Below, piece by piece: positions 4,672 through 24,500 of a DNA stretch of 64,000 nucleotides. The stretch comes from a virus (taxonomy: Duplodnaviria > Caudoviricetes). Below the pieces are notes generated by a model that did no database searches, was not told the DNA's origin, and worked only from the letters and a program-made list of their open reading frames with translations. The position numbers were made by a program, and so were the translations under genes. The DNA lies in IMG/VR virus record IMGVR_UViG_3300009370_001679, positions 1 through 64,000 of that record; one strand, given 5' to 3'. The stretch's first letter is position 1, and each line of letters begins with the position of its first letter.

Positions 4672-4682
4672 GGAGAACTAAT

Positions 4683-4976: not shown

Positions 4977-4979
4977 AAT

Positions 4980-5492
4980 ATGCCTATAGTAATCCCTACA
5001 GGCGTTTTTAACGTCTATAATGAGGCGGTCACTCTTTTTGAGAGGGTCGCCACATTGGTATATCCAGAAAAAAAAGAGCAGTGCCCTAACTGTTATTTGG
5101 ATACTCTAGGTACTCGCACGCGATCTGTTAGCGTATACAAGACTGGTGGTCCTTATCCTTTTGGCAGAGGTATGCCGTGCCCTTACTGTGATGGGAAGGG
5201 ATACAAGGCTATTGAAGTTGAAGAGGACGTGAATATTAGAATATACTGGGAACCTCGCCAATGGAAAGATATTGGCATGTCTATAAATTTACCAGAGGGC
5301 TCAATACAGGTAATATCAAAAATGACAGACTTACCAAAGCTAGATAAGGCTAAATATCTAATACCTAAGTCTTATGGGGATATAAGTAATTACCACACGA
5401 TGCAGTTTACTAAGGCTAGTGCCGCTTATCCTCAGGGGTTTAAGCAAAACCCAGAGAAGTACGCCGTTACCTTTTGGACAAGGAATGGATAA
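4980..5492 (+). CDS. Putative head-closure/neck protein with a Zn-finger insertion
   Basis: Position in neck block; CPNC and CPYCDGKG motifs. Confidence 0.45.
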   Translation: MPIVIPTGVFNVYNEAVTLFERVATLVYPEKKEQCPNCYLDTLGTRTRSVSVYKTGGPYPFGRGMPCPYCDGKGYKAIEVEEDVNIRIYWEPRQWKDIGMSINLPEGSIQVISKMTDLPKLDKAKYLIPKSYGDISNYHTMQFTKASAAYPQGFKQNPEKYAVTFWTRNG

Positions 5493-5494
5493 CA

Positions 5495-7107: not shown

Positions 7108-7122
7108 CTCATTTTTTATGTT

Positions 7123-7133
7123 TTTTGTGTATA
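7123..7133 (+). promoter_or_regulatory. Putative late-promoter motif TTTTGTGTATA
   Basis: Intergenic, ~60 nt before the tail tube ATG. Confidence 0.6.
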
Positions 7134-7191
7134 TATTTATAACCAAGCCAGAGGTGGATAGTTATACATATATGTTAACAAGGAGACAATT

Positions 7192-8220
7192 ATGGCGCTG
7201 AATAATAGAATTTTCTATGCGTGTCAAGCAGTCGCAATCTGTAAAGAGGGTCATACCCCTTTAGCGGGATTGGGTGCAAACGCTGCGATGATAAAAGGTG
7301 TCCAGTCGGTTGGTATCACGAGTAACTTTACTCTTGACCAAGCGTTCGAGTTGGGCCAAATTGAAATCTACGAGAACTCGGAAGAAATTGCCGACATCGA
7401 AGTTACAATTGAAAAAGTTATTGACGGGGAGAAGCTTATTTATGGAGCGGCTTGTGGTAATAGTGTCAAAACTGACATGGTTGCAGCGGGCAAAAACAAA
7501 TGTGATATCTACTTAGGTATCTATACAGACGCAGATTCTACAACGGATAGTGATGCACCACTTCAAGTTGTAATGTGTTCTGGTATGTTTATTAGCTCTG
7601 TTTCTTACACTTATCCCTCTGATGGTAATGCTACAGAATCATGTTCCTTTGTTGGAAATGATAAATTCTGGACAGACAATACCGCCGGTGTTGTGCCAAA
7701 TCCAAAAACTAGTTACGGTTCTCCGGCAAGTGGTTTTGATGGTACTGACACTCCAGCATCTGGTCTTGTAAGAAGAACAAATGTTGATGTTGAAAACTGT
7801 ACCCTTCCTACAGCCGTGAAGTCACAATCTTCAGGTGCCGGTGGAAAGAGTCAGGGTCATCATATCGTAAGTATGAGTGCAAGTACTGACTTTGGTCGTG
7901 AAAGCATCATGGAACTCGGTAAATTTGGTCCTTATCACAGATACGCAGGCTTCCCAGTTGAAGTAACTAGCGAATTTGAGGTAACGGCAGCTAGTGGTGA
8001 CTTGGTTAATGTTTCAGGTAGTCATCCTAACCTTCCCGCCGTTGGCGAGCAGATTACACTCAAAGATGATGCCGGTACGGTTATTGACTTAGGTGCTAAG
8101 AACAAGCTATCTTCGGTTTCTTACTCTGGTGGTGACACTGGTGGTGGAAACGCAACAGTTACTTATTCTTACTCGACTTTCAATACGTTCAACATCAATG
8201 GTGGTGGAACTTACTGGTAG
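7192..8220 (+). CDS. Major tail tube protein (putative)
   Basis: 342 aa, beta-rich; GVQSVG...F.LDQAFELGQ and a second ESIMELG copy; strong AAGGAG SD; own promoter motif; canonical position before chaperones and tape measure. Confidence 0.65.
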   Translation: MALNNRIFYACQAVAICKEGHTPLAGLGANAAMIKGVQSVGITSNFTLDQAFELGQIEIYENSEEIADIEVTIEKVIDGEKLIYGAACGNSVKTDMVAAGKNKCDIYLGIYTDADSTTDSDAPLQVVMCSGMFISSVSYTYPSDGNATESCSFVGNDKFWTDNTAGVVPNPKTSYGSPASGFDGTDTPASGLVRRTNVDVENCTLPTAVKSQSSGAGGKSQGHHIVSMSASTDFGRESIMELGKFGPYHRYAGFPVEVTSEFEVTAASGDLVNVSGSHPNLPAVGEQITLKDDAGTVIDLGAKNKLSSVSYSGGDTGGGNATVTYSYSTFNTFNINGGGTYW

Positions 8221-8227
8221 TAGATAA

Positions 8228-8284
8228 TTCGCGATAGTCGCTAGCACACAATTCGGGACGTGTGCAGCGGCAAGCGAAAAAAAA
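8228..8284 (+). other. Long imperfect RNA hairpin followed by A8
   Basis: TTCGC/GCGAA, GTCGCT/AGCGGC and GCACAC/GTGTGC stems, directly after the tube stop codon. Confidence 0.55.
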
Positions 8285-8313
8285 GACGTTGGAATGGATT
8301 AAGGAAGGTTTAG

Positions 8314-9363
8314 ATGTCAAACATAGATATCGAAAAAGCTTTATATAGAATTATACAAGGTCGCTTGCGCTATAAGGTGCGAGACGGCCTTGTTCTATAT
8401 ATACATGAGCCTACACCAGAGATAATCTATGAGTCTTATGATGTTTATGATGAAGCTTACGAAAAGGCCTACTGGAGAGGTGTCTACGTCAAAGAAGAAG
8501 TCCTCCCCATACTCTTAGAAAATAATTACTGGAGCCCTTTAGACGACAAAGAGGCAGAAAAAGTTCAGAAGCAGATTGAAGATAAAAAGCTAGAAGCCTT
8601 TAAGCAGTTCGTCCACAAGAAGCAGCTCGCCGCCATTAAGAGGGAGATATTCTACCTAGAGAAAAAATGGCAAAAGCTATATCTAAAAAAGAATTCGCTA
8701 GACCATATAACGTGTGCGGGGTGCGCAGACCTAACTAGAAACCAATGGCTTATTGGCAAGACGACAAGATTTCCCGATGGAGCTCTCTATGATTGGAAAG
8801 AAGCCTCTATTCCCAGCGCTACGAACTATAGAGCCTCTAACGCTATTTCACAAGAGATGTATAGGTCTGTCGCTAGGTCTGATACTTGGCGAGGAATGTG
8901 GGGTGCGGGCAAGGGAACAGAAATATTTGGAGTGCCCTTTTCTAGAATTACGCAAGAACAAGCCAGACTTTGTATGTATGCTAGAATGTATGACAACGTG
9001 GCGGAAAGTCCAGAAGCCCCCACAGAGGAAATAATAGCGGATGATATTTGTCTTGATGGGTGGTTCATAGATCAGAAGAAAAAACAAGATAAGCAGAAAA
9101 AGCAAAACCAAGTTGACGGGATGATCTCGAATGATAAGATTAGAAATTCCGGAGAGGTATTTGTTATGGCTCAAGACAACGAAGACGCCCAACAAATATA
9201 TGACCTTAATGATGGGATGGCCAGAAGCACGGTAAAACAGAGACAAGCACAGATAGAAGGGCAAGAGGATCTGATGAAGTTCCAAGAGCTTGCAGACGTT
9301 AAACAAGACATATCAATACAAAGACAACAACAGTTTAGTCAATCACTTAAAAATAGGAGATAA
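8314..9363 (+). CDS. Tail assembly chaperone-like protein (paralog of 9730-10734)
   Basis: Between tube and tape measure; N-terminal region aligns without gaps to the 334-aa ORF. Confidence 0.5.
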   Translation: MSNIDIEKALYRIIQGRLRYKVRDGLVLYIHEPTPEIIYESYDVYDEAYEKAYWRGVYVKEEVLPILLENNYWSPLDDKEAEKVQKQIEDKKLEAFKQFVHKKQLAAIKREIFYLEKKWQKLYLKKNSLDHITCAGCADLTRNQWLIGKTTRFPDGALYDWKEASIPSATNYRASNAISQEMYRSVARSDTWRGMWGAGKGTEIFGVPFSRITQEQARLCMYARMYDNVAESPEAPTEEIIADDICLDGWFIDQKKKQDKQKKQNQVDGMISNDKIRNSGEVFVMAQDNEDAQQIYDLNDGMARSTVKQRQAQIEGQEDLMKFQELADVKQDISIQRQQQFSQSLKNRR

Positions 9364-9374
9364 AGGAATGAAAA

Positions 9375-9737
9375 ATGGATGATTACAATGCTTTACTGAA
9401 GCAGTCTCTTGATCTAAAAGGCAAGAGACAGGAAAAGTATAAAGAGCTATCGAAGGATAGACTGTATAAAATAGCTAAGAAAAAAATACAGACAACTATG
9501 ATCGGCGCTTTAGATACGATAGAGAAGAGCTTTGGTTTTTTGTGGGAATCTGATGAAGAATTAACTAATGAGCAAGTTCAACTTAAAGCTATTTTTGAAG
9601 ATGCTCGATCACAAATTCTAGATCGGGGAAATACCCAAATGAGAAACCTAGAGGCGGAAATGACGCAGTACGACATTTCTTGGAACAGACACACAATTAA
9701 TTTACCAGTAATAGAAAGAGGAGAAGATAATGAGTGA
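9375..9737 (+). CDS. Hypothetical helical protein in the tail assembly region
   Basis: 120 aa, AAGGA SD, overlaps next gene. Confidence 0.6.
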   Translation: MDDYNALLKQSLDLKGKRQEKYKELSKDRLYKIAKKKIQTTMIGALDTIEKSFGFLWESDEELTNEQVQLKAIFEDARSQILDRGNTQMRNLEAEMTQYDISWNRHTINLPVIERGEDNE

Positions 9738-10734
9738 CAAGAAGGATAAAGATTTTGTAGAGGTTAACGCTAAAGACAAGAACGACAATGACGTTACTGT
9801 CTGGGTTAAAAGACCTTCTACGGCAGAGTATAAGGATTCTCAGATTGAGTATAATAAGGCTTTTCGCGAAGCGTTAGAAGGCGGAGCTATTCTTAAGAAA
9901 AAGCTTGGCGAATACATGAGGTCTCAGGGGCTTTGGGATGATGCTAAAGATTCTGAAGAAAAGAGACTTCTTGCGGCAGTAGCAAAAGAAGAGGGCAAGC
10001 TCAAAAAGGGTGGTATCCCTCTTGAAGATGCTAAACAGATCGCGCTTGACTTGAGAAAGACTCGCGCTAAATTTAGAACCCTAATCGCGGAGAGAACTTT
10101 GTTGGACTCTAATACCGTTGAGGGCCAATCTGACAATGCTCGCTTTAATGCTCTAGTAACACTCTGTGTTTTGGATACAGACAAGGTTACGCCAGTGTTT
10201 GAAGACTTGGCTCAGTATGATAAAAAGGGTGACGAGCCTTGGGCCATTGAAGCCGCTAGTGAGTTAGCTTCTTTGATTTATGAGTTAGATCCTAATTATG
10301 ATAATACTCTTGAAGAAAACAAATTCCTCAAGAATTATAACTTTGCTAATAAAGAAAATGAGCTGATTAATTCTGACGGGCATGCAATTTTTCTAGATCA
10401 GGAAACAGGCAAAGAACACCTGATCGAAACAGAAGGTATGCGATTTGTTGCTTATCGCACAGAAGAAGGTTATCAAAAGCAGGATGAAGAAGATAGATAT
10501 TTCGTTAATAAAGACGGAGTTGAAATTGATGAAGATGGTAATCCTGTTGTAGATGATTTTGTTCCATTCTTGGACGATTCTGGTAAGCCTATCCCTGTGC
10601 CTATTAGCGCAGAAGAGGCAGAAAAAGCTGCGGAAGAAGCCGAAACCGCTGAAGAAGAGGCTGAGACAGCTGAGGGCGAAGAAACCACACCAAAAAAGCG
10701 TGGTAGACCAAAAAAGACTGAAGAAGTTACATAA
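9730..10734 (+). CDS. Tail assembly chaperone-like protein with acidic tail and AT-hook-like end
   Basis: Last gene before tape measure; GAGGAG SD; AEEAET repeats then KKRGRPKK. Confidence 0.5.
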   Translation: MSDKKDKDFVEVNAKDKNDNDVTVWVKRPSTAEYKDSQIEYNKAFREALEGGAILKKKLGEYMRSQGLWDDAKDSEEKRLLAAVAKEEGKLKKGGIPLEDAKQIALDLRKTRAKFRTLIAERTLLDSNTVEGQSDNARFNALVTLCVLDTDKVTPVFEDLAQYDKKGDEPWAIEAASELASLIYELDPNYDNTLEENKFLKNYNFANKENELINSDGHAIFLDQETGKEHLIETEGMRFVAYRTEEGYQKQDEEDRYFVNKDGVEIDEDGNPVVDDFVPFLDDSGKPIPVPISAEEAEKAAEEAETAEEEAETAEGEETTPKKRGRPKKTEEVT

Positions 10735-10745
10735 TTTTGTGTATA
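10735..10745 (+). promoter_or_regulatory. Putative late-promoter motif TTTTGTGTATA
   Basis: Begins right after the 10734 stop codon. Confidence 0.55.
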
Positions 10746-10762
10746 TAGACGTGGACAGTCTT

Positions 10763-10812
10763 AAAGGGGTAGCAAACGATACATATGTGTATTTCGAGCT
10801 GCCCCTTTTTTT
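10763..10812 (+). terminator. Intrinsic terminator/attenuator hairpin upstream of the tape measure gene
   Basis: AAAGGGGTAGC pairs with GCTGCCCCTTT, ending in a T7 run. Confidence 0.6.
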
Positions 10813-10839
10813 ATATCAAGCAGAGCATGAGAGGAGAAT

Positions 10840-13800
10840 ATGGCATCTAAATTCAATTTAACAGCGCAGTTGAGCTTGGCGCCTCCTACAAATGTTCCTC
10901 AGATAGTTAGACAGGTTAACCAGCAACTTCAGGGCATTTCGATGAACATTAACCCTGTTGTTAATGCCAAATCTCTTAACCAAGCAAATCAGGCTGTTCA
11001 GAGGGTTGGAGTAAGTGCAAAGGTTACTTCCAAAAATCTAAATACTGCTGCCGGTTCGGCAAGCAGCTTGGGTTCTGCGTTAGGTGCGGCGGCTAGAAGG
11101 TTCGCCTCTATTACGTTGGCTACGGGTTTCTTCTTAGCCTTGACTAGAGCTCTAGGTTCTGCTGTTGGTAGGGCTATCGAGTTTGAGAAAGAGATGTTGA
11201 AAATTTCTCAGGTTACTGGTAAATCGGTGCGGTCACTTAGGGATCTCAGTAATGAGGTAACAAGACTGTCTGGTAATCTAGGTGTATCCTCCGAAGAATT
11301 ATTAAATGCTGCGAGAACTTTATCTCAGGCAGGTTTTGCTGCCGACAAGGTAACTGGGGCGCTGAAGGTTTTAGCTCAGACTGATTTAGCTGCTACGTTT
11401 GATAACATTAAAGACACGACAGAAGGCGCTATAGCTATTCTTAGTCAGTTTAGAAAAGAAGTTCGGGCGGCGGGCGGAGAAGTTCAGTTCTTAGAAATGG
11501 CTATGGACTCCATTAACGCAGTCTCTAAGAGTTTTGCTGTCGAGTCTGCCGACCTTATCTCTGTGGTCAGAAGGACTGGTGGTGTATTCGAGGCTGCCGG
11601 TGGTAAGCTAAATGAATTGATTGCCTTGTTTACATCTGTTCGTGCGACAACCCGTGAAACCGCTGATACTATTGCCACTGGTTTTAGAACTATCTTTACT
11701 CGTATCCAGAGGTCTGAAACTATTGATAGCCTTAGAGAGCTAGGTATTGTTCTCCAAGACACAGAGGGTAAATTTGTTGGTCCAATGGAGGCTATAGCAA
11801 GACTCTCTGCTGGATTACAGGCTCTTGATCCGAGAGACTTTAGGTTTAATGAAATCGTAGAACAGCTTGGTGGATTCCGCCAAATTGGTAAGGTTATCCC
11901 TCTTATTAAACAGTATACCACGTCTACTGAGGCCTTAGCGGTAGCGAATAACGCGATGGGTTCTACCGCTAGAGATGCAGGTATTGCTCAACAGGGTCTT
12001 GGCAACCAGTTTGCACAGCTGAAAGAAAAGTTTGATGCCACTGTTCGTTCTTTGGCTGATAGTGATACATTTCAAACCCTAGCCACATCGGCAATTAAAA
12101 TGGCTGAAGCCATATTGAGAATTGTTGATGCTCTTGAGCCATTGCTTCCTATGTTGACTGCTCTGGCGGCATTTAAGTTAGGTCAAATTGCAATTCCGGC
12201 GTTTGGTAAATTTGCCGGTATTGGCGCAAATGCGGGTGGTAAAATACACGGCTTCGCTGGTGGTGGTATGGTTCCCGGTCGAGGAAATAGAGATACAGTT
12301 CCGGCGATGTTAGAGCCCGGTGAGTTCGTTATGCGCAAATCCGCAGTCAAGAAAATTGGCGCGAACAATATGGCGGAGATGAATGCTAAAGGGTATGCTT
12401 CTGGGGGTCAGGTTTATGAGCAGAATTATGGCGCGGCGATTCTGACGCCCACATCCTCTAAAGGTGACTGGAGCGGAGGATATACACAGATCTCGGAAGA
12501 GCAATCAGTTCCTATTGGGGGCTATAAGCTTGGAGACTCTAAAGGCAGAACCGCGCTTGAGGCATCATGGAATATAGTAAGAAACCGAATGCGATCAACC
12601 CCAGAGGAGCTTACGTTTAAGGAGTTTGAGCCATTTGCTATGAAGGAACTGGCCAAGCAAACTCCCATGATAGCGAAGTCTAGTCCAAACCAAGGTGTCT
12701 ATCAAGCTTTTGAGCAGGGTATACAAGACGGTATAATAGAGGGAACAAGACTTGCTGCCGTTAACGTGTCTAAACAGATACCGGGCACGACAGTTAGCAC
12801 ACCTGAGTCCGGGTCTCAAATCGAGAGCTTTATGGCATCTATTAATCAGGGCGCTAAAGGTAATATGTTTGAGCAGGTAATGGATGCTTTCGGAGAGCCT
12901 TTTGATCAGAGAGAGCCAGATCCGACAAAACCATTTGACTATATGCCGGGACAGTTTGGCCCTCTGAGGAAGGGGTTTAGTAATATTCTTGCTAAGGCCC
13001 AGCATATAGAAGCAAAAGCCTCTCAGACGAAAGCAGCGCCAGCCAAGATGGGACCCAAAGTGCTTGCGCAAAGAGCTCGCTATGCTCCTAACGATCAAAA
13101 CTTTCTAGGCAACGTGCAGGAGAAACTTATTCCACTATTAGCCAAAAAGCGGGACCAAGAGGTTCCAGCGGGCGCGATTCCGAAAAAAGGAAAAGGTACA
13201 AAAAAACCGAGTGGAGGGGTAATGCACACCATGCCCTCCACTGCGGGGCTAGCCAACTCTCATTTTGGTGGCAAGATAGGATATTACGCTAAGGGAGGCA
13301 AGACCGATACTGTTCCCGCAATGCTTACGCCCGGTGAGTTTGTACTGAAGAAAAGCGCCGCTCAGGGTATAGGTTATTCCAACCTTCATAGAATGAATCA
13401 ATCTAATGGTGTTAATGGATATGCCGCCGGTGGTATTGTTACTGGGACAAGAGGGTTTTACGGGAATGGAGTGCCCGGTGGAGGCGCGTCTATAGGAACT
13501 ATTCCCGGCATAGAAAGCGCATCTAAAGGCTTTACACAACTTGCTAAAAGTATAGGGGATCTTGTTGGACAGCTGATAAGAGCTGGCGAATCTATTACAT
13601 TGGGCGCAAATTCAGCGTCTGAAAAGCTGGTTCAGGGTGCAAATGTACTTGGGCCGGAACTCAGTCAGGCAGGTCAGGCATTTATAGGTTTGCCCGCAAC
13701 GATTTTGAACCTGTTGGATGATGGAGCAGTTCAGCTCGGAACTGGCCTAGCAGACGCCGCCAAAGGAATAGGCTCTATAGACAATATAATGATAAAAGCC

Positions 13801-16800
13801 CTTACAGCATCATTAGCCCCTTTCACAGCAGCTATGGCAGATGCTTCCAAGGGAATTAGCGCTGTTGACAACATAATGAACACCACTATGACAGGAGCAA
13901 TGGCACCACTCAAAACATCACTGTCATTGCTTGATGGAGAATTTAAGAAGTTTGGTAAAGAGCTAATGCTTAAGCTCAAATATTTTGATATTTTAAAGAA
14001 AGCCAATACTGATCTAGTTACCGTTATGAACGATCTCGGCAAGAAGCTTATAGAAAAGGGTGATGATTTTGACATATTGAAACCGCCTATTGCCACTGTC
14101 GAGCAGGCACTTATTAGGGTTTCTAATTACCTGAACAACTTTTATCAGATCTTTACGCCACTTGCGGGGGCTGTGCGGCAACTTTCTGTCGCCATGCAGA
14201 ATCAGGCGGCAACAATAACTGCAAGCGGTGCAGGAGTTGCGGCAGGAGCGGGCGGTGCGGCACTACAGGGGCCCATGACTCAGCTAGCCGCGAACATGTC
14301 TATGGCAGCCAAAAGAATGAGCAATATTGCAGTCATTGGTGCTAGCCTTCAGCAGGCGATGGCTAATTTGGTTACGTCCCTTAATTCGGGTAAAGGTAGT
14401 ATAAATAATATAACTATTAATTCCGCAGCCACAGCTCAGGAATTAGCCGAGCTAAAGGCTGAACTAGCAAAGGCCCAAGCTAGAATATTAGAGCTGGAAA
14501 CTGCCGCAGCGCAAGCCTCCACCCAAATGAAAAAGACTGGCGCTAGTGGTGGCGCAGCCGCCGGAGGCATGATGATGGGTGGTGGTGGTGGTGGCCAAAT
14601 GGGGAACAACCTGATGATGGCGGGCATGGCGGCGGGAATGGTTGCCCAGAGTATGGACGGACTGAACGACAAAACAAAAACTTTCGTGACAGATATTACT
14701 ATGATTGGTATGATGTTGGGAATGGTTGCAATGTCCTTTGCTCCTATGTTAAAGGGCCTGTTTATGGTGGCTGGATCTTCGACCACAGCCGCTGCGGCAC
14801 TTTCCGCACAGACTGCGGCGACAGCTGTTGAAGTTGCGGCATCTGAAGCGGCGACTTTAGCAGATATGCAGAAGGCAGGTGCCGGATTCGCCGCATCCGC
14901 GATAGATGCACAGAAAACGGTTGCCGGTGGTGCTGCTACCATAGCCGATAGACTCAAAGCCCTTGCTGCCGCCGATGCGGCGAAGGCAGATAAAATGAAA
15001 GCCGGTGCCGCCATGCTGGCAGGCGGAATTATGGTAGGTCTTGCGATAGCCGCCACTTATGTTATAATGAGAAGTAAGGCGCTTGGTGAACAGGCGAAAA
15101 AGCTAACCGAGGAATATCAAGATTCTATAAAAGAGTTGCAGGAGGGTGGCGCAGGTACGAATCTCGCAGACGCTCAGGCTAAAGTTAGAGCTGCCCTTCA
15201 GAAAGAGGCAGAAGCCGCTGGGGCTACATTCAGTGGGTTCGTTTCTGCTATTGCGGCGACTATTGTAGTTATCGCCGCTGCGGTCGGTCTGTTTTTCGCG
15301 GGGATTGCCACGGGCGGTCTGGCTTGGGCGGCTGCGGCAGCCATTTTTATTGCGGCAGCTGGAGTTGCTGGAGCGGAAATGGGGGCGGCGTTTGCAACGG
15401 CTGAGGAGGCGATAGGGGCGTCTACTGACGCTTTAGTAGCATCAACGTTCTATGCCGCCACAGCTCTGAACGGACTTACTGCGGCAAACCAAGCTATGGA
15501 ACTTGAGCAGCTTAGCGGCGTTGCGTTAATGGAGAGACAAGGACAGGCTTTTGACGACTTCTATGCTTCTTCTCTCCAAGCCGCCGGAGCTATGGCGTCT
15601 TTTCAGGGGATGGAAGCTGGTATGGATCAGGAGTTCAGGGGTGAGATGGAGGACTCAGACGTCTTTGAGGCCGTCAAGGATGGTGGGATTGATGCAATGA
15701 AGGAGTTAAGTCAGGCATGGTTTAAAATGGCTTCCGACATGAAGAACGGCATGAATGGCGCTGTAGACGAAATGATCGAAGGTGGCGCGTCTATCAGAGA
15801 CGCGATGGATAGCGCCGAAATACAGGGTCAGCTTAAAAAATACGGAGCTGCTGTCGAGATGGCTACACGACTCCAGATGATGATGAGTGGACTCCAAAAA
15901 CAACAAGCCAAACAAGAGTTGGGGCTTGCTGGCATGACAGATGAAGAAATGTCTCGGGCTCAGCGCCTTCAGGTGATGGCGAGGGAAAAAGAGCTTATAG
16001 ATAAGGCGTCCGCTGACACAGCCAAGAAAGCGTCAGATGCTCAAGAAAAATCAATGAACGACAGGCTAGAGGCTGACGCAAAAGCGAAAAAGGCTGCGGC
16101 AGAAAAGCTCGCTGCGGACATAGCTCTCGCAAAACAGGCATATCGATCTGCTTTAGCGTTAAGCACGTTTGAGGTTGCCATGGTTGGGCTGAGCGGCGCG
16201 ATGAGTATGGCAGATATGGAATTTGGGGCCCTTACTGGCAGTATAAAACAGTTTAAATCAGTTAACGATAAGCTGATTGCCACCTTAGCCTCTGGAAACG
16301 TTTCTCCCGAAGCTGAACAAGCAGCAATGGCTACGGCTGGCCAATTTGGACTAGAGAGGGAGACAGTCGCTCTTATTCAAAAAATGAAAGATAACGAAAA
16401 AATACGAAAAGTATTGACCGAAAAGGGGATGGAGGCATTTAGTGGAACGCTTGAGGAGAGCGCAGCAAATTTAAGGTTTGATGAATTCATGAGAGATCAG
16501 GGTATTGATCTGTCTGGACTTGACGCTGACATAAGAGCAGAAATTATGAATATGCTAGAGGATGGGCTTCAGCCGGGCGAGATTGAAGAAATCATGAATA
16601 AAATCAATGGCGCCAATGAAGAGCAGATAAAGGTGCTTGCGGAACTAGCCAAAGCACAGAATGATTACGTTGGCGCCCTGTTTAAATTTGGTGGTGAGGT
16701 AGTAAAGCTCAATGAACTATATGCTAAGGCTATTAGTAATGTAATTAGCGTCCAGCTAAAGGGAGCAGAGCGCCTAGCTAAGGCTCAGGGAAGAGATATG

Positions 16801-19800
16801 ACCGTGGGAGATGTTAGGGCGGCAGAAGAAGCTAAAAGAAGAGCTCCATTACAGGCAAGAGGTCTTGTTGGAGGTGGAGTCGGCGCTACACAAATACAGC
16901 TAGAAAGAAACAGACAGAAGGCTAGGGATCTGGCCGATAGAGTTAAGGCAGAGGCTGAGGGCGGTCAAGACGCAGAAACAATAACCAAGCTACAAAACGA
17001 ACAAAAAGACCTAGCCTCTGAGACCAACGCTCTTACGGCGAACCTTAAGAAACTTTCAGATCAGTCTAAGTTGGCCGCCGCCATTATGGGCGAGATAGAT
17101 AAAGAAAAGGGAAAACGGGAGACAATAAGAGGTTTAATCTCCGAGTTTACCTTTGCTAGTAATCAGGGCCGGAAGGATATGGATAGGAATTTCATGGCTC
17201 TCCAGAGGGTGATGGAGACTGGGAGCTTGAATAGTATTCCGGACGAGATGAGGTCTGCTGTTGGAGGGTTATTAGGCACCCTTGAGAATATAGCGATTGG
17301 GCCACAAGGTCAAACGGGTGGAGAAATCAAGAAGATGCTAGAGATGCAGATGGCTAACCAGCTTAAGATTAGAGCTACTGGTAGGCCGCTTACTGCGGAA
17401 GAGATGCAGAGAATATTTGATAAAACAACAAAAGAAGAGAAACTTATAGATGACCTAAAAGCTCTTAATGCCGAAGAGGTTGCGGCGGCGACGGCTCTCG
17501 CTGATCATCAAGCAGATAAGATTGACGACTTGTTGGTGGGAATTGAGAGACTCATTGCAACCCTAGAGGCTGCGCAAGCGAATGCTGGTAATGCGGCACA
17601 AGGTGCGATGCAGCAGATGCAAAACCCTATGCATGGAGGGTTAATTCAGGGATTCGCAGAGGGCGGAACAGCTTCTTCGTCTGCAACTTCTTTAGCCGCT
17701 GGGACTTCTGGAGTAAGCTCTTCGGCAAAAGCGGCAAGTTACACATCAAGCGGTAAAAATATGTTCCAGCCGCGAGGCACAGACACTGTTCCTGCTATGC
17801 TTACCCCGGGTGAGTTTGTTATGCAGAAGAGCGCAGTGGACAGCATTGGTGTAGCAACCCTAAGCGCTATGAATAAAGGTGAGAAGCCTATCTATAGGCA
17901 GGGGGGTGGTCCTGTTTCAACGAGCTGGATGAACTTTAACCAAGAGGATCTTACTCTGGGTGCCACTATGATGGGTGGAAGCATAACAGGGATAATTAAC
18001 GATGTTATAAAAGGTATAACAGAAACCGTCGCCAATGTCGGAGCCTTGAAATTTAGTGATTTTAAGGGTCTTACCGGTTCGGATGTAATAGCAGAAGATA
18101 CAGGATACAGGCTTGATGGCTGGGACGATTTTGTCATGAGTGGCGGTAAAAGTATGTCTGTTAGCGGCGGCTCTTTACATAGGGCTGCTCTTAAAAGACA
18201 AAGAACAAGGTCTGCACTCGAAGAATGGTTTGAGATACGTGCTTGGGGTCCGCGCATAGGTAATCCTGCGGTAGCGGCAGCAATGCTGGAAGACCTCTAT
18301 AAGAGAAAAGATTACATGCAAGCCATTCGTGCTCATAGGTTCTTTTATAATAAAAAATATCCAGACGGAGGAAGCATAGGAAACAATAAAAATAGTGGAG
18401 CCTTTGATTATTGGAATATGTCAGCGGCGGTAGGGGCAGACGCTATAAATGATGCGTTAGCAGCAAGCGAGGAAGCAGCGCGGTATCTTACTACCAACCA
18501 AACAGAAGGAGAGGTTGGCGCGGTTCAAAGCATATCGTTTGCTGAGGATATAAGGAAAAGGTATGCTGGGGGGCCCGCAAGGGGCGTGGCGGCAGGTCTT
18601 GCTGAAGATCCGAACACTGCGGTAACATTGGCAGAGGCTAGCAATTACCGGAGTGTTCAGAAGACGCTGCCTGAGCTTAGAAGAGTCTACCAAGAATATA
18701 GGACAAATGGTCAAAATATATGGGGATCAAATAAAAACATATTGTATTCAGGTGAAGACAAAGGAGCCAAGAATAGCATGGGCATGCCTTACCCCCTTAA
18801 AACAGAAGGGTCCTCGCCAAAACTTTTTGTCCCAGATCCTAGTTTGGCCTCGCAGAAACTGAAGAACCCGGGCGATCCACAGTATGCGTGGATGAGTGGC
18901 CCTAACTTTAGAACGAGTAAGTCTGTTCTCGGGACGGACAACGAGGCAGCGTACTACGAGTCGCTATTGGACGATAGCAAATTTGCTATAGTGGGAAATA
19001 GGATGGCGGAGATAAGCGGTATCGTTCGGTCCGCCACAAAATCGGCATCTTCTGCTTATGGTAGCTTTTTGCACAACAATTTATTTACCGATGAGATGGC
19101 GGGAATGCTTAAAGAGTTTTATACAGATCCAAATGCAGCGACCGCAGAAAATCAGGTAAATCAAATAGCTGAAAAATTACAGAGGGCCTCAAATTCGGGT
19201 GCATGGCAAGGGGGAGACCCCAATGCGATCTTAGCTGCTGTGGTATTTAACCAACTAAGCAAGTTGCCGGGCATTAGTGATGCTATAGAGAACACGACTG
19301 GGTTTAACCAAGGACCTGCTGTTGGCAGTGAGACGGCAGATAAATTTGCAGGGGCACTTGGTTATGTTCCTTGGCGATTAGATGATCCATCTTTGATGAA
19401 TAAAAACATTATAAAAGCTGTTGAGGATAGACGGAATGATGCGGGGCGGAGAATGATGGGGGCAGGCTTGATAACTGCGGATTGGGGTGCGGAGTTTAAA
19501 GCTCTTTGGAAGGGCGAGGACGATAAAACCATTTCGGCAAGTTTCGTTGCGGATAAAATGACTGCTCTTCTTCGTGAGATAGAAGGGCCCGGCGGAAATG
19601 ACATAATGGGAGCGGGTCTTTTAGGTGCCATCCAACAACAACAAGCAGACGCTGCCGCCGACGCAGCAGCACAAGAAGCCGCCGCTGTGGAAGAGGTTGA
19701 AGGTAGGGTCGTGCCAAATCTAGATGTTTTCTATGGCGGTGATGCTCAAAAAGCACAGGCTTTACTGACGGCTCTTGGAGAATATCCGGGTCGCGACAAA

Positions 19801-21567
19801 GCACCAAAAGGTATATATCGAATGCCAGCATACTCAGGATTACGCGGAGAGAAGGGTGTCATTGATGAAAAAACGGGCAACCCAAGGCGAATCTTCGCCA
19901 TAACAGATATCAAGCGTAATAAAGATCATTTTGATGCAATGTTCCCGTTCTTTAAGGAACTCAGTAACGAGATTTTGGGTATGGCAGGACAGGGCTATAT
20001 TACGTCAGCTTCTACGGATGGAGGTGTTGGGTTTAATCCACAGAAAATGGCAGACCTTGGCGGAGCAATAGGTGGGGCGAGTAGGGATGCTCTAGCGCGT
20101 TGGTCAACGCTGGAGGATGTATCCAGTTGGTATGGTAAAGACGGACTCCCAGATAGAGAAGCAGAGAAGATGATTGGCCTGTTTTGGAATTTTAAAAAGG
20201 TAAACACAGCTCTTAAAAAGATGCAGGGAAATGCACGAACAGCAATGCGAATGGCTGAGGAGCAAAATAACGGAATGTGGGCTAGATCTGGCCTGTTTGG
20301 TGGCGATGTCAAAAATTATCCAGACTGGCTGAAACCCGCACAAAGAAATCAACCAAACCAACAACCAAACCAACAACCAAACCAACCCCAGCAGATTCCC
20401 CAACAAAACGCACAAGGCCAACAATTCGCAACGGGTGGCCCAGTAGGAATAGACTGGTCTCCAAGAGGAACTGACACCGTTCCCGCGATGCTAACACCCG
20501 GCGAGTTTGTTATGAGAAAATCCGCCGTAGACAAGTACGGCATAGGCTTTATGGCTGCTATTAATGAAGGCAGAGGAGGTTCTGGAGGATATATGCACGA
20601 AGGTGGTGTTGCTAGTGTTTCACAGTTTGGAGATGTCGCTACTGCCCCCAAAGCAGATCCTGCCATAGCCAAGATTGAGAAAACCGGAACTGCGACATGG
20701 GATAAGATGACCAAAATGGACAATGGTATGCAAGCCCCTATGTCAGACATTAGCGCCATTAAAGCTACTACCTTAGCAACAAACGAAACTACCGCAGGTA
20801 TGTCGAATTCATTCCCCACTCTGAATGACTTATTGCAAGGTATGAGAAGTAAGATAGCTGATATATGGGACAATGTTGGGGGGCCTGCTCCTGCCGCAGC
20901 TTATGCACCAGCCGATATCGATGTCACCGCGATAGTTGCTGAGCTGAAAGTGCTCGCCCAGAGCGCTATTAAAAATCGGAATCAAAACTTTACGAATGTC
21001 ACCGGACTCGCCAATATGCTGATGGAATTGCATCCGCTTCAACTGATGGCGATGCCCAACTTTTTCGCCACAGGAGGTATGGCTAGAGGAACCGACACTG
21101 TTCCCGCAATGTTAACTCCCGGCGAATTTGTAATGAAGAAAAGCGCTGTTGATAAGTATGGCGTAGGCTTTATGAGAAGCCTTAATAATGGTGCCTCTCC
21201 TACATCAAGGTCAAGAGGTGTACAATACCTTCACGATGGAGGTTCTGCGGTGGGTGGTGGCGGAGGCCTCTTTGCAGGGGTCGGAGATATTGTTTCTTCA
21301 ATTAGTGACTCTTTATCCGCCTTTACGCAAGCTTTTAGCTTATTTAGTGGGCTTTCTAGCATGCTAAGCAATACAATTAATAGTATGGCAGACATGAATA
21401 TAACCCATAATATTAACATTAATGGAAGTTTAGCTATTCCCGGATTCTCACAAGAGGACATTGATGGTATAATTGCGAACATATCAAATGGGGTTACTCG
21501 TGGAGTAGACGAGAAAATAAAGCAAGCTTTTGCAAAGCGAGATACAGACAACGAGAACAGAACATAA
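10840..21567 (+). CDS. Tail tape measure protein, 3575 aa, multi-module
   Basis: N-terminal TP901-type tape-measure core (FEKEM..ISQVTG, LSQAGF, FAVES.DL, TRE...IATG.RTI..RI); long Ala/Gly/Met-rich helices; hydrophobic segments; DTVPAMLxPGEFV modules; GAGGAG SD. Confidence 0.9.
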   Translation: MASKFNLTAQLSLAPPTNVPQIVRQVNQQLQGISMNINPVVNAKSLNQANQAVQRVGVSAKVTSKNLNTAAGSASSLGSALGAAARRFASITLATGFFLALTRALGSAVGRAIEFEKEMLKISQVTGKSVRSLRDLSNEVTRLSGNLGVSSEELLNAARTLSQAGFAADKVTGALKVLAQTDLAATFDNIKDTTEGAIAILSQFRKEVRAAGGEVQFLEMAMDSINAVSKSFAVESADLISVVRRTGGVFEAAGGKLNELIALFTSVRATTRETADTIATGFRTIFTRIQRSETIDSLRELGIVLQDTEGKFVGPMEAIARLSAGLQALDPRDFRFNEIVEQLGGFRQIGKVIPLIKQYTTSTEALAVANNAMGSTARDAGIAQQGLGNQFAQLKEKFDATVRSLADSDTFQTLATSAIKMAEAILRIVDALEPLLPMLTALAAFKLGQIAIPAFGKFAGIGANAGGKIHGFAGGGMVPGRGNRDTVPAMLEPGEFVMRKSAVKKIGANNMAEMNAKGYASGGQVYEQNYGAAILTPTSSKGDWSGGYTQISEEQSVPIGGYKLGDSKGRTALEASWNIVRNRMRSTPEELTFKEFEPFAMKELAKQTPMIAKSSPNQGVYQAFEQGIQDGIIEGTRLAAVNVSKQIPGTTVSTPESGSQIESFMASINQGAKGNMFEQVMDAFGEPFDQREPDPTKPFDYMPGQFGPLRKGFSNILAKAQHIEAKASQTKAAPAKMGPKVLAQRARYAPNDQNFLGNVQEKLIPLLAKKRDQEVPAGAIPKKGKGTKKPSGGVMHTMPSTAGLANSHFGGKIGYYAKGGKTDTVPAMLTPGEFVLKKSAAQGIGYSNLHRMNQSNGVNGYAAGGIVTGTRGFYGNGVPGGGASIGTIPGIESASKGFTQLAKSIGDLVGQLIRAGESITLGANSASEKLVQGANVLGPELSQAGQAFIGLPATILNLLDDGAVQLGTGLADAAKGIGSIDNIMIKALTASLAPFTAAMADASKGISAVDNIMNTTMTGAMAPLKTSLSLLDGEFKKFGKELMLKLKYFDILKKANTDLVTVMNDLGKKLIEKGDDFDILKPPIATVEQALIRVSNYLNNFYQIFTPLAGAVRQLSVAMQNQAATITASGAGVAAGAGGAALQGPMTQLAANMSMAAKRMSNIAVIGASLQQAMANLVTSLNSGKGSINNITINSAATAQELAELKAELAKAQARILELETAAAQASTQMKKTGASGGAAAGGMMMGGGGGGQMGNNLMMAGMAAGMVAQSMDGLNDKTKTFVTDITMIGMMLGMVAMSFAPMLKGLFMVAGSSTTAAAALSAQTAATAVEVAASEAATLADMQKAGAGFAASAIDAQKTVAGGAATIADRLKALAAADAAKADKMKAGAAMLAGGIMVGLAIAATYVIMRSKALGEQAKKLTEEYQDSIKELQEGGAGTNLADAQAKVRAALQKEAEAAGATFSGFVSAIAATIVVIAAAVGLFFAGIATGGLAWAAAAAIFIAAAGVAGAEMGAAFATAEEAIGASTDALVASTFYAATALNGLTAANQAMELEQLSGVALMERQGQAFDDFYASSLQAAGAMASFQGMEAGMDQEFRGEMEDSDVFEAVKDGGIDAMKELSQAWFKMASDMKNGMNGAVDEMIEGGASIRDAMDSAEIQGQLKKYGAAVEMATRLQMMMSGLQKQQAKQELGLAGMTDEEMSRAQRLQVMAREKELIDKASADTAKKASDAQEKSMNDRLEADAKAKKAAAEKLAADIALAKQAYRSALALSTFEVAMVGLSGAMSMADMEFGALTGSIKQFKSVNDKLIATLASGNVSPEAEQAAMATAGQFGLERETVALIQKMKDNEKIRKVLTEKGMEAFSGTLEESAANLRFDEFMRDQGIDLSGLDADIRAEIMNMLEDGLQPGEIEEIMNKINGANEEQIKVLAELAKAQNDYVGALFKFGGEVVKLNELYAKAISNVISVQLKGAERLAKAQGRDMTVGDVRAAEEAKRRAPLQARGLVGGGVGATQIQLERNRQKARDLADRVKAEAEGGQDAETITKLQNEQKDLASETNALTANLKKLSDQSKLAAAIMGEIDKEKGKRETIRGLISEFTFASNQGRKDMDRNFMALQRVMETGSLNSIPDEMRSAVGGLLGTLENIAIGPQGQTGGEIKKMLEMQMANQLKIRATGRPLTAEEMQRIFDKTTKEEKLIDDLKALNAEEVAAATALADHQADKIDDLLVGIERLIATLEAAQANAGNAAQGAMQQMQNPMHGGLIQGFAEGGTASSSATSLAAGTSGVSSSAKAASYTSSGKNMFQPRGTDTVPAMLTPGEFVMQKSAVDSIGVATLSAMNKGEKPIYRQGGGPVSTSWMNFNQEDLTLGATMMGGSITGIINDVIKGITETVANVGALKFSDFKGLTGSDVIAEDTGYRLDGWDDFVMSGGKSMSVSGGSLHRAALKRQRTRSALEEWFEIRAWGPRIGNPAVAAAMLEDLYKRKDYMQAIRAHRFFYNKKYPDGGSIGNNKNSGAFDYWNMSAAVGADAINDALAASEEAARYLTTNQTEGEVGAVQSISFAEDIRKRYAGGPARGVAAGLAEDPNTAVTLAEASNYRSVQKTLPELRRVYQEYRTNGQNIWGSNKNILYSGEDKGAKNSMGMPYPLKTEGSSPKLFVPDPSLASQKLKNPGDPQYAWMSGPNFRTSKSVLGTDNEAAYYESLLDDSKFAIVGNRMAEISGIVRSATKSASSAYGSFLHNNLFTDEMAGMLKEFYTDPNAATAENQVNQIAEKLQRASNSGAWQGGDPNAILAAVVFNQLSKLPGISDAIENTTGFNQGPAVGSETADKFAGALGYVPWRLDDPSLMNKNIIKAVEDRRNDAGRRMMGAGLITADWGAEFKALWKGEDDKTISASFVADKMTALLREIEGPGGNDIMGAGLLGAIQQQQADAAADAAAQEAAAVEEVEGRVVPNLDVFYGGDAQKAQALLTALGEYPGRDKAPKGIYRMPAYSGLRGEKGVIDEKTGNPRRIFAITDIKRNKDHFDAMFPFFKELSNEILGMAGQGYITSASTDGGVGFNPQKMADLGGAIGGASRDALARWSTLEDVSSWYGKDGLPDREAEKMIGLFWNFKKVNTALKKMQGNARTAMRMAEEQNNGMWARSGLFGGDVKNYPDWLKPAQRNQPNQQPNQQPNQPQQIPQQNAQGQQFATGGPVGIDWSPRGTDTVPAMLTPGEFVMRKSAVDKYGIGFMAAINEGRGGSGGYMHEGGVASVSQFGDVATAPKADPAIAKIEKTGTATWDKMTKMDNGMQAPMSDISAIKATTLATNETTAGMSNSFPTLNDLLQGMRSKIADIWDNVGGPAPAAAYAPADIDVTAIVAELKVLAQSAIKNRNQNFTNVTGLANMLMELHPLQLMAMPNFFATGGMARGTDTVPAMLTPGEFVMKKSAVDKYGVGFMRSLNNGASPTSRSRGVQYLHDGGSAVGGGGGLFAGVGDIVSSISDSLSAFTQAFSLFSGLSSMLSNTINSMADMNITHNININGSLAIPGFSQEDIDGIIANISNGVTRGVDEKIKQAFAKRDTDNENRT
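12292..21150 (+). repeat. Five dispersed copies of DTVPAML[TE]PGEFV[ML]xKSA (starts 12292, 13306, 17782, 20473, 21094)
   Basis: Read directly from the translation and DNA; amino acids nearly invariant, third codon positions diverged. Confidence 0.95.
20350..20385 (+). repeat. Perfect tandem repeat (CAACCAAACCAA)x3 encoding a QPNQ linker
   Basis: Direct sequence inspection. Confidence 0.9.
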
Positions 21568-24500
21568 TGGCAAATATAAAATCCACAAAATCATTACATA
21601 TACAGAATGATCAGACCGATGCTGCGGGTGTATACCAGCGCAATCGGGGTATGGATTTATTTCTAGAAGCTCCCGGCGGAATTCAGCAGTTTACAAACTT
21701 TGACGCCAAGGTTGCGTCTTATAATAACAATGACGCAGAGGTTAGAGCAGGACTCTTTGATAGTCCGTATAGATACCTTGAGCTGGAAAGACAGTATGAT
21801 GGTACCGCCACTATGCCTTTCGAGTATGATAATGGCCAGTACTACCCAAGCGACATAAAGATTCTTGATGATATAGCTGTCGTTTCCTATAAAGAGCATA
21901 GCCAGAGAGTTTATCTTATCAATGAGACTATGAAAACTGGACATGTCATCGTAAAAGTTACATATGATAAGGTGGGCGAAGATGAAGTTTTTAATGATGT
22001 TGACCTTAATAGTGGGTTGGTTTTTGCGAATGTTGGAACTGCGGCTAGAAACTTAACAGAGTTTGCCGGTGCAAGCAATATAGTGGGGAGTAATTCTGGT
22101 GTAGAGTCTGGATATAGTATTAGCCCCACCGGAGATGTCGCTGTAGACTTAGGGATAGGCTGTACTACCACAACATCTGATGAAGATTGCACCGTGTTTG
22201 GTGGTGATACATGGACATGGAGTGGGGGAACATGGGTTCAACAAACATTTACAGGATGTGGAGCATGTTTGGACCCATCGTCCGCGACCAGCTGTGGGTG
22301 TGATTCTATGCCACCAGTCGCTCCCGGCACATACGATGGTGAGGGTGGAACCGGAACATGTGCTGCCAAAACAGAAGTAGTTTGCGACCCATTTGTAGAA
22401 GATGATGATGGTACTGATGTCAAGAAGAGGGTTAATGAGGGGGTTCAAGATTGCGCAGGCCCAACAATGCCCGCAGATGCGCTAGAGAATAAAGAAGGGG
22501 GTATATTCTTTAGTCAGGTAAAGAACAAAAAGGGCGAAATCATTGACGTTCTTCAGGGGCTTGTAGTTGATTTTAGCGAGAAGTCAACACCTAGCGATGC
22601 AACACTGTTAAGTCTTAGGTCAAGGCATGACTCTAATTTGATATGGGTAGATGAGTGCGCCGAGGATACAGTGACTTATTATTATAAGGTTCCCTGCCAA
22701 GTGGTTGATTCTTTTTACTGGCAGATAGGACAGAAGACCCAGTGTGGAAGAGTGGATATCTTTGAGCGTCGTAGCGGGACCATAACAGCTGTTGACGGAA
22801 ATAAGATTACGGTAACAGGCCCCACTGGAGACAGTGAACTGATAATTGATGGTTTTGACACTAATCTACTGAATGACTACGATAGAATTAAAATTGTTTC
22901 GGGGGTAAACGAAACCCCAAAAGATCACGTCCATCCTATTAACGGAATCAAATATGTTAAACGAACAGCTAATGGTGATACTGAATATTATATATATGAT
23001 GATGAAAACTTAACACAGGAAACAGACACCTCCTCTCTTAAAAGCACCGATGGTTTACTATGGGCTTTTCATCCCGATGACTCTGACTTTGGGGTTTGGA
23101 GATATAAGACCACATTATTTTCCCCTAACGGTCTCAATGGAGACGGAGTGACGGGTCGCGGAAGAACACCCTACGTAAATCAGGGCGGCGTAGGCCAAAT
23201 AGCAGGCTACACAGGAGGGTATTACAGTGGGGGAAATGACACCGATATTCGCAACGCTTTAGATTTAATGGCGTGGGGATATAGGTTTGGTCAAGCAATA
23301 GATATTATAAAACAGCCCGGCACTGATTATTACTGGCTTGCTATTAGTGAGTTGGGGAATATAGCTAATTCAGATAGTGGAATGGATTATTTTGGGCGGG
23401 TTCAAGGGTCTCAGAATAGTCTCGCTCTCTCAAAATCGGTTTTAATAACTGATAAAGATGGCAACCCCGTTTTAGATGAAAATGGTCTTCGTCAAACAGA
23501 GATGCGGGGCATTTCTCTAGATGAAGCAATTGAATTCGGTCTAGACCCTAAACTTCCCGGACTGGCTAGCATGTTTATAAATCACATTACTGGTAAATAT
23601 GATGAGCAAATCGATTGGAACCACACAGAACACTATTCTTACGGCGGGGTAGAGCAAGACCAGAGCAACAGGGCTTCGGGTAAAATCACCTCTATTTTGT
23701 CTCCCTATGGGTACCAAGTTCTAAAACCTAAACATTTAGGGTATGGAAGGGTTTGGCTTTATAAGATAAACATGAATAGTGCTGACTCTGCTATTTCCTC
23801 AATAGGAACCGCTGAGGAGATTAACGCAGCTACAAGAAATGGTCACATTTCAGAGCCACCATTATGCATGGGTGATTACATTGCTGGTTTAACGGATGTC
23901 GATTTTCCTACCAATGTTGAGGGATTGGATGGCTATGGTTATTCCATCTTTTCAAAGTTGGGGTATTTGTACTGGTTTAGAGCGTGGATTTCTAACCTTA
24001 AATCTGGAACGGTTGGAGGTTTTAGTGGGCATGCTAAGGCGCACCACAGGGGGTCGTTTGATAAATGGAACTATAATTCTGGATATCCCAAGAAGTGGGC
24101 GCCTTCATGGTCTTCCGACGAAGAAGACACAGATGAATATGGAAATCCGGGCGGGTTTGATTCGGGTATGGATATTGATCTGCCCGGCGGCGGAACGATG
24201 GGCGGCATGATGGGTGATATGGGCGGTGGTGGTGATGGTGATGGTGGTGATGGTGGTGATGGCGAAACCAAGACCATCGGCCGTGGTGGCGTTACAAACC
24301 TGTTCTTTATTGAATCGCAGAGGTTCGTCAATGAGCTAGTTATGTATAAAGGCGAGTTCGGTTCGGTATTTGGCACGGCCAATGTTAATTTTTTTCCAGA
24401 TGATATACTACAATTTTTTAGGACTAACGAGACTCCGTATGCCCCCTATGCAACATCTGCTGATATCCTAACTAACGGTTTTAAGTTCGCTGACGGGTTT

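Follow-up and report, generated by a model that had tools for sequence, protein, structure and literature searches.

The tape measure protein (TMP) of an uncultured long-tailed phage consists, by comparison with its relatives, of a conserved scaffold and exchangeable cassettes, and each boundary between scaffold and cassette is marked by one of five copies of a short joint. The gene occupies positions 10840..21567 (+ strand) of the window, by which we mean the whole stretch of DNA that was analysed: 64,000 nucleotides, positions 1 to 64,000 of IMG/VR record IMGVR_UViG_3300009370_001679. Its open reading frame (ORF) encodes 3,575 amino acids (aa; protein P0001). The scaffold comprises an N-terminal PhageMin_Tail region, a helical/transmembrane segment of ~1,400 aa and a tail of ~100 aa, and the cassettes are the segments that we call B, D and E. 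By profile alignment the joint is the element that ordinary TMPs, among them lambda gpH and JBD30 gp46, carry once near the C-terminus. It is very likely that the joints delimit functionally separate, swappable units. The first-pass annotation had read the protein as a polyprotein that holds cargo cassettes and is cut at each module. The cargo-cassette half of that interpretation is supported, and the half in which the protein is cut at each module is plausible.

The product is identified as a TMP by its N-terminal sequence. Pfam places PF10145 PhageMin_Tail at aa 138-342 (nt 11251-11865) with 84.9 bits against a cut-off of 33.2 (9e-24), and the PHROG TMP families phrog_28, 4211, 1533, 37649, 1272 and 167 match the N-terminal ~470 aa. 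Four further PHROG families match the protein solely via the repeated module, and two of these four are annotated 'unknown function'. Neither in this TMP nor in four other giants, which have 7-8 modules each, does Pfam see any domain besides PF10145. A search of PDB sequences with the whole TMP gave only one chance-level row (E 0.44). The phage collection held no close cultured relative, the best N-terminal matches being 21-26% identical.

The joint is a module of ~60-70 aa that begins with [FY]AxGG, continues through the core DTVPAML[TE]PGEFV and two short helices, and closes with [FY]xxxGG. All five copies lie on the + strand. Module 1 (12235..12420, aa 466-527) reads GGKIHGFAGGG...DTVPAMLEPGEFV...GYASGG, and module 2 (13267..13452, aa 810-871) reads GGKIGYYAKGG...DTVPAMLTPGEFV...GYAAGG. 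Module 3 (17650..17931, aa 2271-2364) has GGLIQGFAEGG followed by a Ser-rich spacer and then DTVPAMLTPGEFV...YRQGGG. Module 4 (20410..20625, aa 3191-3262) reads QFATGG...DTVPAMLTPGEFV...YMHEGG, and module 5 (21046..21255, aa 3403-3472) reads FFATGG...DTVPAMLTPGEFV...YLHDGG. Module 5 holds the canonical position near the C-terminus, ending at aa 3472 with 103 aa remaining; the four internal copies are what sets this protein apart from the norm.

The first-pass annotation had claimed five copies with conserved residues and divergent synonymous codons, and our results bear it out. There are exactly five modules in the 3,575-aa ORF, with DTVPAML at aa 485, 823, 2315, 3212 and 3419. The claimed flanking motifs are all present, both upstream (GFAGGG, YYAKGG, GFAEGG, FATGG, FFATGG) and downstream (GYASGG, GYAAGG, YRQGGG, YMHEGG, YLHDGG), and GG[KL]Ix[GY][FY]AxGG does precede copies 1-3. 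A hidden Markov model (HMM) of the module, run against the six-frame translation of the whole 78,605-bp contig, gave five hits (E 5e-26 to 3e-24), all in the TMP ORF; outside that ORF it gave just two sub-threshold rows on the contig (E 36 and E 1.9). The copies are therefore far beyond chance and confined to the TMP gene. Over 36 codons, the ten pairs of copies are 53-83% identical in protein and 55-76% in DNA, and 7-16 of the 19-30 codons for shared residues differ between copies. Third-position divergence with the residues kept marks the copies as old duplications with selection on the peptide, and each copy is held by purifying selection.

Pfam has no family, LysM included, in any of the five modules even at E<=10, and no solved structure of the module was found by sequence search. 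An AlphaFold2 (AF2) model of module 4, made from a 34-row alignment, has a predicted local distance difference test score (pLDDT) of 59.4, with two short helices (KSAVDKY and IGFMAAIN) after an extended stretch. A predicted complex of three copies scored 0.02 against a mark of 0.42, which speaks neither for nor against self-association.

Lambda gpH (NC_001416) carries the sequence FHFATGG...GIVHRGEFVFTKEATSRIGVGNLYRLMRGYATGG at about aa 731-784, and its whole element, FATGG...GEFV...IG...GYATGG, spans about aa 731-789. When the 34-row module alignment was compared with gpH, hhalign gave 94.7% and E 5.7e-8 over 53 columns, and the module profile found gpH among all PDB chain sequences at E 2.6e-4. 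During maturation gpH loses a C-terminal piece of ~14 kDa 'from the glycine-rich region', and the fragment gpHC, about residues 690-853, is resolved just at 818-849 (PMC12617516). The module falls within the portion of gpHC that is not resolved, either at the cut or shortly behind it. The first-pass annotation had given gpH one related module in a C-terminal part that is removed; the module is indeed present once, but 'removed' has to be qualified, since part of gpHC stays in the virion (PMC12617516). The best-supported reading of the single-copy element is that it would be a hook adjoining the TMP maturation cut.

Two further phages carry the element. JBD30 gp46 has a diverged module at aa 1016-1072 (11.3 bits, E 1.5e-5 in a one-sequence search), which coincides with a published predicted hook at 1022-1066 (PMC11445458). 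In the TMP of mycobacteriophage Douge, gp16, a search of PDB sequences found two modules, at aa 959-1029 and 1412-1471 (E 2.1e-12). Phage T5 is a less certain case. Its TMP, pb2, is cut after R1127 at FVPR/AEGG (the stroke marks the cut), and once the receptor is bound, a crevice between the opened hub subunits receives the final 43 residues of pb2* (T1085-R1127) and pb2C is expelled (PMC10038345). The pb2 sequence reads ...DTTQYLTLGERQ...(about 30 aa)...FVPR/AEGG. Its layout is like that of the module, with a hydrophobic stretch, DTTQYLTLGE..., about 40 residues and then FVPR/AEGG, and RA.GG is invariant in all five T5-like TMPs compared. Three hhalign runs (one with a T5 sequence on its own, one with an alignment of five T5-family members and one with a broader alignment of the module) all set the module core on DTTQYLTLGE and the downstream GG motif on R/AEGG, at a probability of 0.18-0.25% and E 0.24-0.33. 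By alignment, then, the T5 correspondence is a lead and not a demonstrated homology.

Multiplication of the module is characteristic of a large family. The first-pass annotation had proposed counting copies in related TMPs with an HMM, and the count gave 2-10 copies in each of 250 proteins. A word-seeded search for relatives, which returned proteins of 1,966-6,257 aa, found 1,365 at E<=1e-3 among 8,000 scored candidates. The 120 relatives listed from it have two copies (1 protein), three (12), four (77), five (17), six (12) or eight (1). The 250 proteins, which include 129 further ones from a profile census, have from two to ten copies in 1, 17, 122, 56, 29, 14, 9, 1 and 1 cases, respectively. 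The census, in which a profile of the five window copies was run against 1.84 billion cluster representatives, gave 18,755 matches at E<=1e-3, 6,038 at E<=1e-10 and 961 at E<=1e-30, and its top rows have up to 10 copies and reach 7,872 aa. A single canonical copy is estimated to score at ~1e-10 to 1e-20, so most holders would be single-copy and roughly 961 multi-copy, a figure that is estimated and not counted.

The family has a common layout, with median lengths of 459 aa for the N-terminal segment, 298 aa for slot 1 and 1,120 aa for slot 2, then one to seven further slots, and a C-terminal tail past the last module of about 118 aa (247 proteins). Conservation of the core over 1,119 unique module instances is, in per cent, D98 T86 V93 P97 A98 M84 L98 T89 P95 G100 E99 F90 V99. 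The downstream aromatic-x(1-3)-GG motif is found in 1,006 of these instances and an upstream aromatic-x(1-2)-GG in 675. Even if uncut, the joints are the most conserved element of these giant TMPs.

The element also crosses tail morphotypes, because it occurs in T4-like cyanomyophages. The gene that follows the gp26/gp51 hub genes of S-SM2, like its counterpart in S-SCSM1, has one module (64 bits each), which sits mid-protein and whose core, DTVPAMLTPGEFVM, is identical to the window's. These genes are SSM2_012 (L003 4963-7263) and S-SCSM1_213 (L004 3207-6059), annotated as 'transmembrane protein' in one phage and 'lysozyme' in the other. Their products are probably mis-annotated TMP-like proteins.

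The segments between the modules are conserved to very different degrees. In a segment-by-segment BLAST against the 120 listed relatives, with a match defined as at least 50% coverage, segment A matched 115 relatives (median 59% identity), the C3 part of segment C 94, the five modules 106-120 and segment F 44. The remaining parts matched far fewer: C1 23, B 17, C2 17, D2 8 to 11, D1 3 and E 0. Single-linkage clustering of 1,398 inter-module segments from the family put 233 of 248 N-termini in one cluster, and likewise 199 of 242 segments from slot 1 and 192 of 232 from slot 2. The 229 segments of slot 3 fell into 111 clusters and the 109 of slot 4 into 73. Among the C-terminal segments, 135 of 247 were in one cluster, with a median length of 117 aa.

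The closest relative, P0003 from IMG/VR contig L009, shows this exchange at the level of DNA. Over the scaffold its protein is 90-99% identical to that of the window. While the scaffold keeps an identity of 82-97%, B, D1 and E are replaced: BLAST sees nothing similar in B or E, and in D1 the similarity is low. DNA homology between the two genes ends at aa 523 (the end of module 1) and restarts at aa 822 (the core of module 2), and segment C is 96% DNA-identical. A separate block corresponds to module 3 (aa 2296-2369). A further one opens within D, at aa 2918, and runs to aa 3264, just past module 4; the last begins at aa 3408, where module 5 starts. Five of the six breakpoints thus fall at module edges, which makes the modules junctions for cassette exchange among relatives. 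Since the slot-1 cassette of P0003 belongs to the same broad family by iterated search, B is replaced by an allelic form; in D1 and E the change has the look of a genuine swap of cassettes. The first-pass annotation had asked whether the inter-module segments vary across relatives. They do so sharply for B, D1 and E, with modules and scaffold kept; C is conserved.

The scaffold and cassettes lie in order along the + strand. Segment A (10840..12234, aa 1-465) is the conserved N-terminal TMP domain and has a hydrophobic stretch right before module 1. Segment C (13453..17649, aa 872-2270) is Ala/Gly/Met-rich and reads as a conserved helical/transmembrane scaffold. Three stretches that resemble transmembrane segments, aa 1282-1311, 1386-1411 and 1459-1519 (nt 14683-15396), are marked by Kyte-Doolittle windows at >=1.6, and aa 1701-2270 form a charged helical part behind them. 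By composition alone, AEKQLRM residues make up 57-59% of the segment, and Pro accounts for 0.2-1.2% of C2 and C3. GC content reaches 0.52 at window positions 14001-16000 and is 0.38-0.47 elsewhere; the rise coincides with the Ala/Gly/Met-rich transmembrane part of the TMP and is therefore an effect of protein composition, not foreign DNA. Segment F (21256..21564, aa 3473-3575) is the C-terminal tail. Its position suggests a counterpart of the resolved end of lambda gpHC and of T5 pb2C, which plug the baseplate hub, and its role would be similar.

Of the cassettes, D (17932..20409, aa 2365-3190) consists of D1, up to about aa 2917, and D2; it has more aromatic and Pro residues and a composition unlike that of a ruler. 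Cassette E (20626..21045, aa 3263-3402) is unique to this phage among the proteins examined and forms a singleton cluster. Cassette B (12421..13266, aa 528-809) is a folded alpha/beta domain with GNxFE, PFD and [DE]AK motifs, followed by a Lys-rich linker. Both B and D are richer in Pro and aromatic residues than the ruler-like C.

The AF2 model of cassette B is confident and alpha/beta, with pLDDT 85.2 and a predicted TM-score (pTM) of 0.78. In an alignment with 20 relatives (21 sequences), no variation is seen at E151 of GNxFE, D173 of PFD or K213, and hardly any at [DE]-A198-K199. This residue pattern fits a PD-(D/E)XK nuclease (E ... (P)D ... (D/E)xK), but fold searches do not confirm it: Foldseek of the model against the PDB found no clear match (best E 0.67), nor did a BFVD search (best E 0.16), and in a wide VIA-align comparison the best Z was 7.3 over 78 residues, to a phage connector chain, with no nuclease standing out. 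A cassette-B profile reached only E 2.1 against PDB sequences. With a loose regular expression, the ordered E/PD/(D/E)xK motifs were found in just 87 of 242 slot-1 cassettes. Cassette B, a domain that most members of the TMP family carry, may represent either a novel fold or a nuclease-like domain that has diverged very far. At least one cassette (B) is thus folded and enzyme-like, and no cassette is a recognisable effector. The per-segment structure prediction proposed in the first-pass annotation accordingly divides: B is predicted with confidence as a folded domain and not a helical ruler, while C is scaffold by composition.

Some slot-1 cassettes are longer. In P0083, P0079, P0108, P0097 and P0211 they have 430-505 aa, with an extra N-terminal part that contains a second E...D...ExK-like pattern (e.g. 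GLAFE...RIDA...EIKS). The long cassettes also hold an internal GGLIQKFAxGG without the DTVPAML core, which suggests that joints in decayed or partial form lie inside cassettes.

A mechanism that would join these observations treats each joint as a 'hook-and-cut' element, in which the AMLTPGEFV stretch forms a beta-hairpin, two short helices follow and [FY]AxGG motifs stand on either side. The uncut chain would serve as the ruler during tail assembly. Cleavage at the Gly-Gly motifs that adjoin the hooks would follow, whether inside the completed tail or once the chain has been extruded; T5 pb2 and lambda gpH are precedents. The lumen would then hold, or release, the plug F, the hypervariable passengers E and D, the membrane-channel piece C, the folded B and the N-terminal A. 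These pieces, each ending in a hook, would exit in the order F, E, D, C, B, A ahead of the DNA, so that the hypervariable ones would be the first into the envelope. In its broadest form this reading makes the giant TMPs an undescribed class of self-processing polyproteins, in which the gpH-type joint is autocatalytic or triggered by assembly, is the cleavage determinant of lambda gpH, and turns the lumen into a magazine of swappable passengers fired ahead of the DNA. We regard that full form as tentative and, taken whole, rather unlikely. If it were so, the class would number hundreds to thousands of metagenome cluster representatives, the longest of 7,872 aa and the richest with 10 joints.

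Two considerations argue for cutting. Every internal copy is under the same strong selection as the terminal one, and both TMPs known to be cut, those of lambda and T5, are cut in or beside the corresponding region, with the caveat that homology of the T5 stretch to the module is unsupported. The last joint, M5, is probably processed as in lambda and T5. The case for cutting at three or more joints falls somewhat short of even.

A good deal weighs against repeated cutting. No result shows cleavage at any of the five modules. The cleavage site and catalyst of lambda gpH are stated to be unknown (PMC12617516), and the cut proposed at 1066 in JBD30 gp46 is its authors' speculation (PMC11445458). 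The module HMM gave no match to T5 pb2, and T5 homology is without statistical support. No peptidase domain was found by Pfam in the TMP or in 18 neighbouring ORFs, which leaves room for divergent or host proteases. Joints hundreds of nanometres inside a filled tube would be out of reach of a protease bound at the tail tip; internal cuts would thus require autocatalysis or would have to be made after ejection. Fission of the gene at a module was not seen: in 14 IMG/VR loci with a TMP it is always a single ORF (of 16 loci, 6 have a complete single TMP ORF, 8 have a TMP ORF cut by the end of the locus and 2 lack a TMP). Free-standing versions of the cassettes were not seen either: no homologue of D or B shorter than 1,966 aa was found at E<=1e-3 in a search of limited sensitivity, and the ESM Atlas gave no usable match for D or B. 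Pfam, whose sensitivity is likewise limited, found no effector domain in this TMP or in the four other giants. The largest segment, C, appears to be scaffold and not cargo, and the module on its own is folded with poor confidence (pLDDT 59).

Data from other phages bear on the same question. In Douge only residues 1658-1699 of the TMP are resolved (PMC13033339), the full 1,699 aa fit a tube of 269.6 nm at 1.59 A per residue, and the TMP is described as a trimer throughout the tube. The TMP of phiCbK, which has a CHAP domain, is reported as the top gel band, and its full length predicts that of the tail. Both results count against multiple cuts. Scaling of tail length is not decisive, however, because lambda also measures first and is cut afterwards.

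A serious possibility, which we hold at a little under the chance of three or more cuts, is that the modules are uncut docking or hinge hooks of one continuous chain, providing for instance successive stops in the opened hub or points of folding at the envelope, with extrusion proceeding piecewise. Only the terminal joint, if any, would then be cut as in lambda, and the cassettes would act while tethered, like the enzyme motifs in the TMPs of TM4, phiCbK and SPbeta. At 60-70 aa with secondary structure the module is bigger than a protease site, the corresponding stretch of T5 is a docking element, the Douge and phiCbK data suit intact rulers, and the absence of a detected protease and of any split gene fits as well. 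It is harder to see on these terms why each internal copy is under strong purifying selection, as the three crevices of a trimeric hub give no evident use for five docking hooks per chain, or why lambda and T5 (module homology unsupported in the latter) are cut in or beside the corresponding region.

Less probable, to the point of being unlikely, is that the modules punctuate the assembly of a very long ruler as chaperone contacts, tube-initiation contacts or register marks for the oligomer, and that the variable segments are spacers diversifying under exclusion or host factors. In its favour, exclusion proteins such as Ltp and HK97 gp15 are known to target TMPs, the tails of Douge and phiCbK have lengths that follow the whole TMP, and the cassettes are without known effector domains. 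Yet cassette B, with a compact fold and invariant acidic and basic residues, is no spacer, and B and D have a non-ruler composition. The near-identical core in cyanomyophage hub-region proteins, whose tails and chaperones differ, argues moreover against a partner as divergent as chaperones or tube proteins. It is very improbable that the modules are repeats binding a universal host component of the envelope (a membrane, a periplasmic chaperone, or peptidoglycan in the manner of LysM), present in several copies so as to hold the TMP, once extruded, across a thick envelope: phages that infect E. coli, Pseudomonas, Mycobacterium or Synechococcus, and others whose marine hosts are unknown, do share an extremely conserved core, and GEFV..K.A...G...L..N is loosely LysM-like by eye, but neither LysM nor any other Pfam family was detected in the modules at E<=10, the predicted hairpin followed by two helices is unlike the beta-alpha-alpha-beta order of LysM, and structural support is lacking.

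In their order, the surroundings of the gene would fit a tail locus. An overlapping ORF pair lies upstream and a 3,034-aa ORF downstream, consistent with an order of tube/chaperone, TMP and hub, with neighbours that have no Pfam or PHROG identity. The pair consists of a 334-aa ORF (9730-10734, +) whose 3' end is overlapped in another frame by a 102-aa ORF (10553-10861, +) reaching the TMP start. The site just upstream of the TMP is the usual place of tail assembly chaperones with a programmed frameshift. The TMP stop codon overlaps the ATG of the 3,034-aa ORF (21567-30671, +) in an ATGA, and that ORF has no Pfam or PHROG match and no module copy. ORFs of 491, 1,260, 698 and 581 aa come after it and are likewise unrecognised; those downstream of the TMP are presumably the distal tail, hub and fibre genes, with the ORFs at 21567-30671 and 30683-32158 as candidates for the hub. 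In the part of the window before the TMP (1-10734, +) there are ten ORFs of 169-431 aa, none with a Pfam match; their sole PHROG match is a tail-fibre-like C-terminus in the ORF at 32-1327. These ten are presumed to be head and tail genes of a very divergent structural module. With the neighbouring ORFs nearly blank in Pfam and PHROGs, no protease, tube, chaperone or hub gene could be named. At the end of the rightward structural arm a 135-aa ORF (39771-40178, +) matches DUF6171 (E 1.3e-7). Contig L009 (105,810 bp) is 92.5% DNA-identical over 10.6 kb to window positions 1828-12408. It is 27 kb longer than the 78.6-kb assembly, so the genome in the window may be incomplete.

Several elements of this picture have been described before. 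TMP cleavage (lambda, T5), enzyme motifs in TMPs (TM4, T5 and phiCbK), the fusion of a TMP to RNA polymerase in P23-45, and injected polyvalent proteins are all known. In the open-access literature we found no description of a multiplied gpH-type joint or of swappable TMP cassettes bounded by joints. TMPs are usually regarded as rulers and channel formers. A multiplied joint that fences cassettes swapped by close relatives suggests a changeable payload in the tail lumen. The module is also a concrete candidate for filling a gap of 50 years: where and how lambda gpH is cut.

The TMP described here and lambda gpH share a hydrophobic stretch before the module and, after it, a short C-terminal tail that binds the hub in lambda and presumably does so here. 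Lambda gpH differs in having one copy, only 853 aa and no inserted cassettes, and its N-terminal family appears to differ. JBD30 gp46, at 1,158 aa, also has one module. Douge is a cultured and purified phage with more than one, in a TMP of 1,699 aa. In T5 pb2 there is just one site, and a muralytic motif lies in the C-terminal fragment. The 5,002-aa TMP of Thermus phage P23-45, gp96, is fused to a virion RNA polymerase (PMC10770324). Like the enzyme-bearing TMPs of TM4, phiCbK and T5, it brings a working protein into the host along with the DNA. The cargo of gp96 sits at the N-terminus and is thought to act while fused, and no module was detectable in the protein. Repeated joints or swappable cassettes are not described for the TMPs of TM4, phiCbK, T5 or P23-45. 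Polyvalent proteins (Iyer et al. 2017, PMC5512222) are likewise large, injected, multi-unit proteins with variable units and a proposed proteolytic release, and that article makes no mention of tape measures. They are defined, however, by known catalytic domains and embedded zincin-like peptidases, none of which was found in this TMP. In polymorphic toxins, conserved motifs demarcate exchangeable ends. A changeable payload in the tail lumen, if true, would be the phage counterpart of that logic.

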